Assembly (NCBI RefSeq): GCF_006345805.1
Contig: NC_043007.1
Span: 19,468,001-19,532,000 of the forward strand
Reading direction: 5' to 3'
Length of the DNA: 64,000 nucleotides
DNA from: Octopus sinensis
Taxonomy: Eukaryota
The position numbers and the translations under genes were made by a program. Positions 32,180 to 57,775 of the stretch are shown piece by piece (position 1 is the first letter of the stretch; each line of letters starts with the position of its first letter). The notes beneath the pieces are model-generated. The model was given only the letters and a program-made list of their open reading frames with translations, was not told where the DNA came from and searched no databases.

Positions 32180-32431
32180 CTAAGTATACGCAACAGGTGA
32201 GTACGATAAGTTAAAAGGTAACCTCTCACCCCCCACACACACACATCAGTTCCAATCTGTTGAAGACTTCCTTTCTTCCCGACCGGAGTGTTAATAACAG
32301 TGGAAAACGCATGAACGCCACCACACTTCCAATATAAATGATTATGAAATGCCAAAGTCTTCATAAGAAATAAAAATACATCAACTCATATTGCTAATAA
32401 CCTTATATATAGTTATATATATATATGCCCA

Positions 32432-32680
32432 AGAGCATATGGCGTAGTGGTTAAGAGCGCGGGCTACTAACCCCAAGATTCCGAGTTCGATTCCAGGCAG
32501 TGACTTTAATAATAATAATAATCATAATGATAATAATGAAAAATACCTTAGGAATGAGAATCCAGGTTCTAAATTTCCCCCAAGACACCTGATGAAGGCT
32601 AAGGGTATATCAGCCGAAACGTTGTGTTAACAACAAACAAGATGAGGACAAATATCCGTCAAATGTAAATAATGTAAATA
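32432..32680 (+). mobile_element. tRNA-derived SINE-like element with a 3' hammerhead motif
   Basis: A box TGGCGTAGTGG (32440-32450), B box GAGTTCGATTCC (32483-32494), (AAT)n linker, hammerhead 32584-32628, AATGTAAAT repeat tail. Confidence 0.7.
32584..32628 (+). ncRNA. Minimal type-I hammerhead ribozyme motif (extra A after A9)
   Basis: GACAC-CTGATGA-A-GGCT aagggtatatc AGCC-GAAA-CG-TT-GTGTT; loopless palindromic ACGT stem III, GUU triplet. Confidence 0.7.
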
Positions 32681-32691
32681 ACCCTGCATAT

Positions 32692-33915
32692 CTTTTATCT
32701 TTTACTTGTTCCAGTCATTAGACTGCGGCCATGCTGGGGCAGTGTCTTAAAGAAATTTAGTGGAATATATCGGCCACAGTTTTTAATTTTTTAAAGCCTT
32801 CTACTATTCAATCGGTCGTTTTTGCCGAACCGCTAAGTTACGGGTCGTAAACACACCAGTACCGGTTATCAAGCGGGGGATGGGACGTGGGATACACACA
32901 TGACGGGCTTCTTTCAGTTTCCGTCTACCAAATCCACTCACAAGGCTTTGGTCGGCTCGAAGCTATAGTAGAAGACACTTACCCAAGGTGCCACGCAGTG
33001 GGACTGAACCCGGAACCATGTGGTTGGGAAGCAAGCTATTTACTACACAGCCACTCCTATATGTGTTTGTGTGTGTGGAGGGGGTTGTTCCTTCGCGCCG
33101 CTCGACAACCGTAACTTAGTCATTCGGCAAAAGACACCGACAGAATAATTACAGGAGTCGATGTGTTCGGCTTAAACCCTTCAAGGCGGTGCTCCAGCAT
33201 GGCCCCGCAGTTCAAGGACTGAAGCGAGTAAAAAGTATTTGGCTGTGTGGTAAGAAGCTTGCTTCACAAGCACATCGTTCTTGGTTCAGTCCCACTGCGT
33301 GACACCTTGGGCAAGTGTTTTCTACCGACGGAAACTGAAAGAAACCCGACGTGGATATGTGTGTGTGTGTGTGTCACCACCGCTTGACAACCGTTGTTCG
33401 TGTGTTTACGTCCCCATAACTTAGCGTTTCAGCAAAGGGGGATTCATTCGACTAAGAATTATTCAGAGCGGTGCCCCAGCATGGCCATAGTCTAATGACT
33501 GAAACACGTTAAAGATACATACGTATACTCTTTTACTTATTTCAGTCATTTGACTGCGGTCAAGCTGGAGCACCGCCATTAATCGAGCAAATCGACCCCA
33601 GTATTATTCTTTGTAAGCCTAGTAATTATTCTATCGGTCTCTTTTGCCGAACCGCTAAGTTACGGGAACGTAAACACACCGCCATCGGTTGTCAAGCGAT
33701 GTTGGAGGGACAAACACAGACACAAACATATACACACATATACATATATACGACGGACTTCTTTTCAGTTTCCATCTACCAAATCCACTCACAAGGCTTT
33801 GGTCGACCCGAGGCTATAGTAGAAGACACTTGCCCAAGGTGCCACACAGTGGGACTGAACCCGCAACCATGTGGTTGGTAAGCAAGCTACTTGCCACACA
33901 GCTACTCCTGCGCCT
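32692..33915. mobile_element. Cluster of four SINE-A copies in mixed orientations
   Basis: ~32692-33058 (-), ~33060-33235 (+), ~33240-33515 (+), ~33527-33915 (-). Confidence 0.8.
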
Positions 33916-56689: not shown

Positions 56690-57775
56690 GCAACTGGCTG
56701 GAATGCTCCCAAGAACTTAAATAAAGCTCAAAGCAAAAAACCATATATACATAGAATGCAGTATCGCAAAGGTATATTCCAAAGAGACAGCCACTCTGTG
56801 ATGTTTATATTGGGTTGTCCGGAAAGTTCGTGCCGATTTTTAAAGGAAAGAAAAAGGTCAACAAATACTTGTCATTATATTTTTAACCAACCAAATATGA
56901 ACCATTTTGTTGCACAATGCGTCCCCATCTTTCCTTTAACTTGAAAATACCCTCTTCCCAGAATTGAAGAGGTTTCATGGCAAAGAATTCATCCAGGTAT
57001 CTTTTTATGTCGTCCAAGGAATTGAAATTTTTACCATTAAGACTATTCTGCAGAGAACTGAATAAGTGGAAATCCGAAGGAGCAATATCTGGCGAATATG
57101 GAGGGTGGGGTAACACATCCCAGCCGAGCTGCAACAATTTTTGTCTGGTTCCCAAAGCATCAAGTGCCGAAAATGAACTTTTCTTATCTTCCATTTTAAA
57201 GGGTTACAGAATTAACACAGGTTATTGGAACATAAACCTTCTTCCACGAAAAGATAGCTTAAACTGTGCTCTAAATGGAGGTGTAGTCAAATCCTATTTT
57301 ACGAGTATGGACTCAACTACGTTCTAAAATAAGTCGAAAGGTAAGCTACTATAAATCGGCACGAACTTTCCGGACAACCCAATACTTTCTGTAAGCCCTT
57401 GTCATTCATGTTAAGGAACTCTGAAGAATATCTTACTGGTCTACAAGGAAACAGAAATACCAAAATTCCACACTGTTTTTATGTGGATGACTTGAAACTT
57501 TATGCAAAGAATATGCATGAGATGAAAAAGAGCCTTGATCTAGTTACAACATTCTCAAAAGATGTAGGGTTGGAGTTTGGTCAGGATAAATGTTGCTAAA
57601 CGTTTGTGAAAAGGGGGAAAACTATTAACCAGACTAGTAACATCTCCATCAATGATTTGACTGTTTCCCCTGTATCTGACGAGGCATGTTACAGGTATCT
57701 AGGGGTGGATGAAAACATTATTTACAATGGCACTAAAGAATCTTTCGGTCGAATAAAGAAAATTTGGACCTCAGA
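56690..57775 (+). pseudogene. R4/Dong-clade non-LTR reverse transcriptase fragment interrupted by a mariner
   Basis: KGIFQRDSHSVMFI|LSVS-LSFML...HCFYVDDLKLYAK...GLEFGQDKC*...YRYLGV: RT domains 4-7. Confidence 0.8.
56810..57382 (-). mobile_element. Internally deleted mariner element (573 bp)
   Basis: Perfect 30-bp TIRs TTGGGTTGTCCGGAAAGTTCGTGCCGATTT (56810-56839 / 57353-57382); TA TSD on both sides; HPPYSPDIAPSDFHLF motif in ORF 57194-56883. Confidence 0.95.

Follow-up and report, generated by a model that had tools for sequence, protein, structure and literature searches.

A stretch of 64,000 nucleotides (nt) from Octopus sinensis (NCBI RefSeq assembly GCF_006345805.1, contig NC_043007.1, positions 19,468,001 to 19,532,000, forward strand), referred to here as the window, contains a repeat copy in which a transfer RNA (tRNA)-derived head precedes a hammerhead ribozyme motif. 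This copy is probably the short non-coding front end, or pseudo-long terminal repeat (pLTR), of a Penelope-like element (PLE) whose unit starts with the tRNA-derived head. It was likely made by the element's reverse transcriptase (RT) from an RNA likely started at the head by RNA polymerase III (Pol III). The anatomy of the copy, the unity of its family, its membership of the PLEs and the classes of its ends are established at the level of sequence. The original prediction had taken the same copy for a chimeric short interspersed element (SINE) that ends in its ribozyme.

Head and hammerhead had been predicted to occur together as one family, and this was borne out: of the 30 head-anchored loci taken first, the match extends across the hammerhead in 25, over part of the body in 4 and over none of it in 1. 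A 271-nt query against the 2.72-Gb genome returned 3401 candidates, and the best 40 scored matches of these 3401 all span both parts. Exact 34-letter patterns were found at 1590 places for the hammerhead and at 1650 for the head, and their reversed controls at 0. Scaled by the exact-match share among independently found arms (8/91 for the hammerhead, 17/98 for the head), these counts give rough genome totals of ~18,000 hammerhead arms and ~10,000 head arms. Copies diverge by 4.6-5.3% from the column majority outside CpG, which indicates that the family is old; its copies would be decaying neutrally.

The suggestion that the 3' part of the repeat is PLE pLTR sequence was confirmed on both flanks, as in long copies the body continues into the N-terminus of a PLE open reading frame (ORF) and the end of a PLE ORF lies directly upstream of the head. 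At 7/30 head-anchored loci, the sequence extends upstream into a common ORF end of RT and GIY-YIG type, whose stop codon precedes the head by 29 nt; ORF-linked copies have the same junction between ORF and head. The unit runs in the order head, AAT linker, ORF start over the hammerhead, RT, GIY-YIG, stop, 29 nt and next head. Its full extent is seen at L287, where a head, an ORF and a second head follow one another with the heads 2,645 nt apart. Hammerhead-bearing pLTRs in partial tandem, directly visible as pLTR-ORF-pLTR in L287, also occur as partial tandems in L233, L236, L241 and L247, and ORF-bearing copies that start at the head are L222/L287, L228 and L221/L225 (L222, L228, L221/L225 and the partial tandems come from 30 N-terminus-anchored loci). 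A search with an RT piece gave 7251 candidates; besides the query, 24 loci were fetched, and downstream of the RT 13 carry head and body, 1 the head only, 2 the body only and 8 neither. No head-less PLE subfamily was found: the 9 inspected of the 10 loci without a head break at scattered points and have no common 3' end.

The ATG equivalent to position 32554 opens a frame of 390 amino acids (aa) in L190. From its residue 11 onwards, this frame can be aligned to that of an intact relative (847 aa), also across the codons whose letters make up the hammerhead. The longest open frame, with RT and GIY-YIG-type motifs, has 551 aa (L116), and no fully intact copy was found among the copies scored. 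There are 1665 homologs of the ORF, and those listed carry PF00078/PF28514/PF26215; Atlas gave 0.97 for the ORF, including a GIY-YIG cluster. The PDB comparison of the ORF returned weak RT matches only, and the viral contigs searched held no relative. The RT and GIY-YIG domain names rest on the precomputed families of the homologs, on Atlas and on motifs. The presence of one ORF with an RT and a predicted C-terminal GIY-YIG domain identifies the element as an endonuclease-positive (EN+) PLE. Its placement in the Penelope/Poseidon clade is suggested by the domain order, by the overlap of hammerhead and ORF and by an identity of ~27% with the other PLE families of the genome that have a cysteine linker; for these PLE families, we take the clade labels to be Poseidon and Neptune.

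Internally deleted copies (L237, L242, L227, L190 and others) have N-terminal sequence of the ORF fused to the body of the pLTR, and many ORF N-terminal matches end near residue 45-90. Other PLE families of the genome (L278-L285, L252-L277) have intact ORFs of 760-880 aa and many identical-scoring copies and are likely to have been active recently. Their 3' regions contain CAC/CTA repeats or repeated motifs, the latter presumably CCAAT- and CRE-like.

The alternative put forward originally is an independent self-cleaving chimeric SINE, with a tRNA head and a PLE tail, whose ORF-linked heads would result from the joining of PLE pieces and SINE copies. It accounts for the predominance of short copies with their start at the head (23/30 head-anchored loci) and for the direct repeats of 8-13 bp, as in SINE insertions, which flank 8/28 single-arm copies (vs 0.65 in shuffled pairs), and Schistosoma Sm-alpha is a precedent for it (PMC6765202). 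The location of the head within an autonomous PLE, the constant ORF-head junction and the lack of a head-less PLE among the 9 loci inspected speak against it, and so does the comparison of the short (56) with the ORF-linked (31) pLTRs, where the majority letter differs at 1/209 columns, a column polymorphic in both groups. Short and long copies are thus not separate subfamilies, and the short ones do not form a non-autonomous lineage apart from the PLE. As copy ends also do not lie at the cut site, this alternative is largely refuted and must be considered very improbable.

The ends of the copies were analyzed at the first 90 usable of 100 hammerhead-anchored places listed (1590 in total) on C1, one internally deleted locus being set manually. 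On a reference in which the cut site is at 90, the 3' ends of the 90 arms comprise 45 long ends (165-174), 42 short ends (137-153) and 3 others; short ends lie 47-63 nt and long ends 75-84 nt past the predicted cut. Long ends are true ends, as just 1/44 continues into the ORF. The notion that self-cleavage makes the 3' end does not agree with these data, 87/90 ends belonging to one of two classes that lie clearly beyond the cut site; the window copy itself does not end in the ribozyme but 58 nt beyond the predicted cut. An inverted body arm stands upstream at 47/90 loci (36 long+short, 3 long+long, 2 short+short, 6 other), so that 36/41 classifiable inverted pairs combine a long with a short arm (P 4e-7). 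The 5' ends are distributed over the body (14), the AAT linker (25), the interior of the head (18), positions -5 to +9 of the head start (28) and upstream sequence (5). Among the 33 arms that reach the head start, 28 stop within -5 to +9, where the rate of loss within the head would predict 8% (P about 1e-25). Head-to-tail tandems are rare, direct neighbours of the short unit being present in only a few of the 90 loci (L132, L143); the usual partner is an inverted arm and not the tandem hammerhead unit by which retrozymes and Sm-alpha are recognized.

An inverted 5'-truncated arm together with a tail of 30-40 bp at one end is characteristic of EN+ PLEs, and both are observed in this family. 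Inverted repeats and a 30-40 bp tail have been described for PLE copies (PMC8557442), and in the anole Poseidon this pattern was traced in vitro to a pair of internal sites, downstream of the hammerhead, at which the RT starts (PMC11167929). The predicted mobilization by a PLE thus receives support from the inverted arms and from the two 3' end classes 30 nt apart, and by analogy with the anole element the PLE protein likely primes internally on the RNA. In the mechanism proposed, the protein would bind the RNA near the ORF start and nick AT-rich DNA; the cDNA would begin at one of the two internal sites past the hammerhead and extend as far as the 5' end of the RNA, at the head. A short SINE-like copy would result if the RNA is primed in its first repeat, and a long one if it is primed in its second. 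The inverted pairs may arise from two primings or from a fold-back where the palindrome marks the start of the head. Non-majority letters are shared between the arms within a locus at a rate of 8.4% and between loci at 2.7%; this difference is weak, counts some loci twice and does not discriminate between fold-back and two primings. At the head-start palindrome, a 2-nt centre is found in both orientations at many loci (e.g. L009, L010, L025, L070), and a head fold-back of 20-27 nt lies between inverted and forward arms at several loci.

The hammerhead conforms to type I in its sequence, with the core CUGANGA/GAAA/NUH and helices I-III. Helix I has 5 bp, helix II has 4 bp in the window copy and 5-6 bp across the family, and helix III is reduced to 1 bp plus the palindrome ACGU. 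The core CUGAUGA with an extra A, followed by GAAA, is present in the window as predicted. The hammerhead fold has -7.8 kcal/mol vs -8.4 for the minimum free energy structure (0.6 apart), which keeps helices I and II. A subfamily variant is present at one core position only, the tolerant N7 (23/103 copies). PLE ribozymes with such a palindromic reduced helix III have been described as dependent on dimers (PMC4209133), and hammerhead cleavage was reported to be dispensable in anole Poseidon and was observed there only with protein (PMC11167929). The octopus hammerhead would likely cut only as a dimer or with protein and would not set the copy ends. No reads ending at 32623 were found in fragmented RNA libraries, a library type unable to reveal cleavage.

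The head derives from a tRNA with A and B boxes, as judged by alignment. It aligns over its full length to the genome's own tRNAs, best to Arg-TCT (score 62 vs a maximum of 48.5 in 100 shuffles), in a comparison set of 43 tRNA sequences of the same genome covering only 11 anticodon types. Another candidate for the source, tRNA-Ser(GCT), scores 52-54, below Arg-TCT, and is not supported. Both boxes and their spacing are intact at the column level in 122 head alignments, and in the window the boxes, the anticodon-arm remnant and the AAT linker are found as predicted. ARAGORN at default settings called no tRNA in the head, and Rfam called neither a tRNA nor a hammerhead at the locus, its weak small nucleolar RNA, CRISPR and microRNA matches being due to chance. 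In L287 (oriented 2700-2930), the B box of the second head is interrupted by a different tRNA-like repeat. At least 15 identical tRNA-Ser(GCT)-type motif matches are clustered at G000:C3:67.26-67.30 Mb and at least 9 at C7:93.04-93.07 Mb, the type of the C3/C7 clusters being assigned from L425.

Copy starts at the tRNA 5' end, together with the intact boxes, suggest Pol III, which likely starts transcription at the head. Transcription by Pol III predicts that runs of four T (T4) are absent from the transcript. The original prediction placed the first T4 at about 32693; the run is indeed at 32693 but belongs to a neighbouring repeat, outside the element. A homopolymer-run profile over one unit was compiled from 122 places (median cover 51), a run being counted if present in half of the copies. 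Shared runs per unit amount to 87 for T2+, 13 for T3+, 0 for T4+, 29 for A4+, 7 for C4+ and 0 for G4+, where composition expects 5.7 T4, 25 T3 and 2.7 G4. In 32 long natural copies, 31 scattered T4 occur vs 139 expected; these copies descend from one source, so that the deficit counts once. Control ORFs are richer in T4: six long ORFs of the genome's other PLE families have 7-13 each, and 60 related ORFs of at least 1.5 kb from metagenome contigs, drawn from 80 kept, hold 510 vs 346 expected, 1 of them having none and 5 having at most 1. The absence of T4 is unusual (empirical P about 0.02-0.08), yet it is a single observation, and G4 is absent too. A synonymous-shuffle test on single broken ORF pieces gave P 0.15-0.35, the test being too weak on such pieces. 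The 3' regions of metagenome relatives (12 inspected) are mostly T-rich and often contain a hammerhead of the same type, with no head. Two of these relatives, L303 and L305, have 0 and 1 T4 in the ORF, T-rich 3' regions and no head.

That Pol III reads the whole PLE ORF fits the absence of T4, which is suggestive only, and can be entertained as a tentative proposal. The same holds for the wider scenario, possible rather than probable, in which an autonomous coding PLE would have swapped its Pol II promoter for a captured tRNA promoter, be transcribed by Pol III end to end, have purged T4 from 2.6 kb and have shed ~10,000 SINE-like copies of its 5' end. The rival explanation is that RNA polymerase II (Pol II) makes the RNA of the same PLE, from an internal promoter or by read-through, the head being carried along from an ancient SINE or tRNA insertion and the short copies being 5'-truncated products that end at the head-start hairpin. 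The hairpin does overlap the site of the 5' pile-up at the head start and could stop the RT on a longer Pol II RNA. Uncapped Pol III RNA is poorly translated, while a PLE ORF needs translation, which counts for Pol II. The best studied PLE promoter, that of Drosophila virilis Penelope, is also of Pol II type, LINE-like (long interspersed element-like) and internal to the pLTR (PMC2377424), and G4 runs are missing from the shared unit as T4 runs are, so that the lack of runs may be due to chance. However, the stop site coincides with the 5' end of the tRNA, the two boxes and the distance between them are preserved, and the shared unit is low in both T4 and T3, related ORFs being T4-rich; the Pol II explanation is considered unlikely.

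The hairpin and the Penelope promoter also weigh against the interpretation preferred here, a PLE front end copied from RNA started by Pol III, and several further points do so. In three unstranded raw-read RNA runs, whose reads cover the family, neither sharp starts nor sharp ends were visible at the head or the cut site; most RNA reads continue into unlike sequence, and their depth follows the pattern of the DNA runs. The authors' own Pfam scan of the ORF gave no match, PF26215 being outside the library scanned. Hammerhead core columns are 92% kept among copies vs 94% elsewhere, no better than the rest, and hammerhead activity is thus only predicted. The samples were drawn from a single chromosome by means of exact-match anchors, and the BLAST ends have a precision of about 5 nt.

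The window copy carries no A-tail and no flanking target-site duplication (TSD). Its parts are listed in Table 1.

Table 1. Parts of the PLE-derived copy in the window
Feature	Position	Strand	Remarks
Whole copy	32425..32681	+	Single arm, 'short' 3' end class, no TSD
Copy 5' end	32425..32438	+	Decayed short hairpin/palindrome, overlaps head start; 5' junction in many copies
tRNA-derived head = PLE unit 5' end	32433..32506	+	
A box, Pol III type 2 promoter motif	32440..32450	+	Predicted from sequence
Anticodon-arm remnant	32459..32473	+	
B box	32483..32494	+	Predicted from sequence
(AAT)n linker	32507..32539	+	Length differs between copies
First ~43 PLE ORF codons	32554..32681	+	Likely start ATG 32554; frame decayed in window copy
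Type I hammerhead motif, palindromic ACGU helix III, overlaps ORF	32584..32628	+	Predicted cut after U32623
Copy 3' end, 'short' class, without ~30-nt PLE tail	32660..32681	+	Likely internal RT start site, as reported for anole Poseidon (PMC11167929)

Other very high-copy repeats lie directly 3' of the copy (window 32693-33400), with a read pile-up at 32698-32741, and further tRNA-like pieces occur within these neighbouring repeats near 32985-33050. The region 57400-57750 may hold a decayed LINE RT fragment, by look only.

A tRNA head within a coding element links Pol III SINEs directly to PLEs and offers a concrete origin for tRNA-plus-hammerhead repeats of the Sm-alpha type. Internal priming by a PLE could mass-produce SINE-like copies without a separate SINE lineage, and the thousands of paired arms constitute an in vivo record usable against models of PLE insertion. 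If Pol III does make the full RNA, a coding retrotransposon would depend on a polymerase held unfit for mRNA, which raises the question of how an uncapped RNA is translated; transcribed end to end in this way, a SINE and its partner would be combined in one element.

Several pieces of this arrangement are already known, namely hammerhead pLTRs, Sm-alpha and Pol III promoters in non-coding miniature retrotransposons with terminal repeats (TRIMs). As reported for the anole Poseidon PAc (PMC11167929), the Penelope/Poseidon type shares with the octopus element a single ORF with RT and C-terminal GIY-YIG, a pLTR hammerhead over the ORF start, 3' ends in two classes that lie ~30 nt from each other on the 3' side of the hammerhead, inverted 5'-truncated arms and AT-rich flanks. 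Unlike that of Poseidon PAc, the octopus pLTR opens with an A/B-box head of tRNA origin, where copies have their start, and its sense strand has no shared T4. No tRNA head was found near the ORF ends of 80 related metagenome loci with a strict pattern, many of the contigs being without untranslated regions.

Schistosoma Sm-alpha likewise has a Pol III promoter of tRNA origin with a type I hammerhead downstream (PMC6765202, PMC4918200). As described there, Sm-alpha is tandem, non-coding and released by cleavage, whereas octopus copies are dispersed or inverted, end away from the cut site and have the sequence of a coding PLE's 5' end. Non-LTR retrozymes are also short hammerhead repeats related to PLE pLTRs and are described as likely moved by PLE protein (bioRxiv 10.64898/2026.07.22.740005; PMC7761336), but they are defined by tandem units, which the octopus family lacks. 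The main text of the retrozyme preprint makes no mention of tRNA (bioRxiv 10.64898/2026.07.22.740005), and non-autonomous PLE derivatives have been reported before (PMC8557442; bioRxiv 10.64898/2026.07.22.740005). The TRIMp3 elements Cassandra, Helenus and Ajax carry a Pol III promoter derived from a small RNA within the terminal repeat; they are non-coding LTR elements, whose autonomous partners are stated to require Pol II (PMC10886601), whereas the octopus promoter is found in a coding PLE.

The literature searched contained no account of a tRNA-derived head in a PLE, Repbase/Dfam being outside its scope, and the short form may already bear a name. Among coding retroelements, R2 is co-transcribed by RNA polymerase I (Pol I). 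It differs from the octopus element in this use of Pol I, in its ribozyme of the hepatitis delta virus type, in its specificity for ribosomal DNA and in its class of RT. The two would be alike in that the RNA of a coding retroelement arises without the usual Pol II start and contains a self-cleaving ribozyme, one reported for R2 (PMC6765202) and predicted in the octopus.
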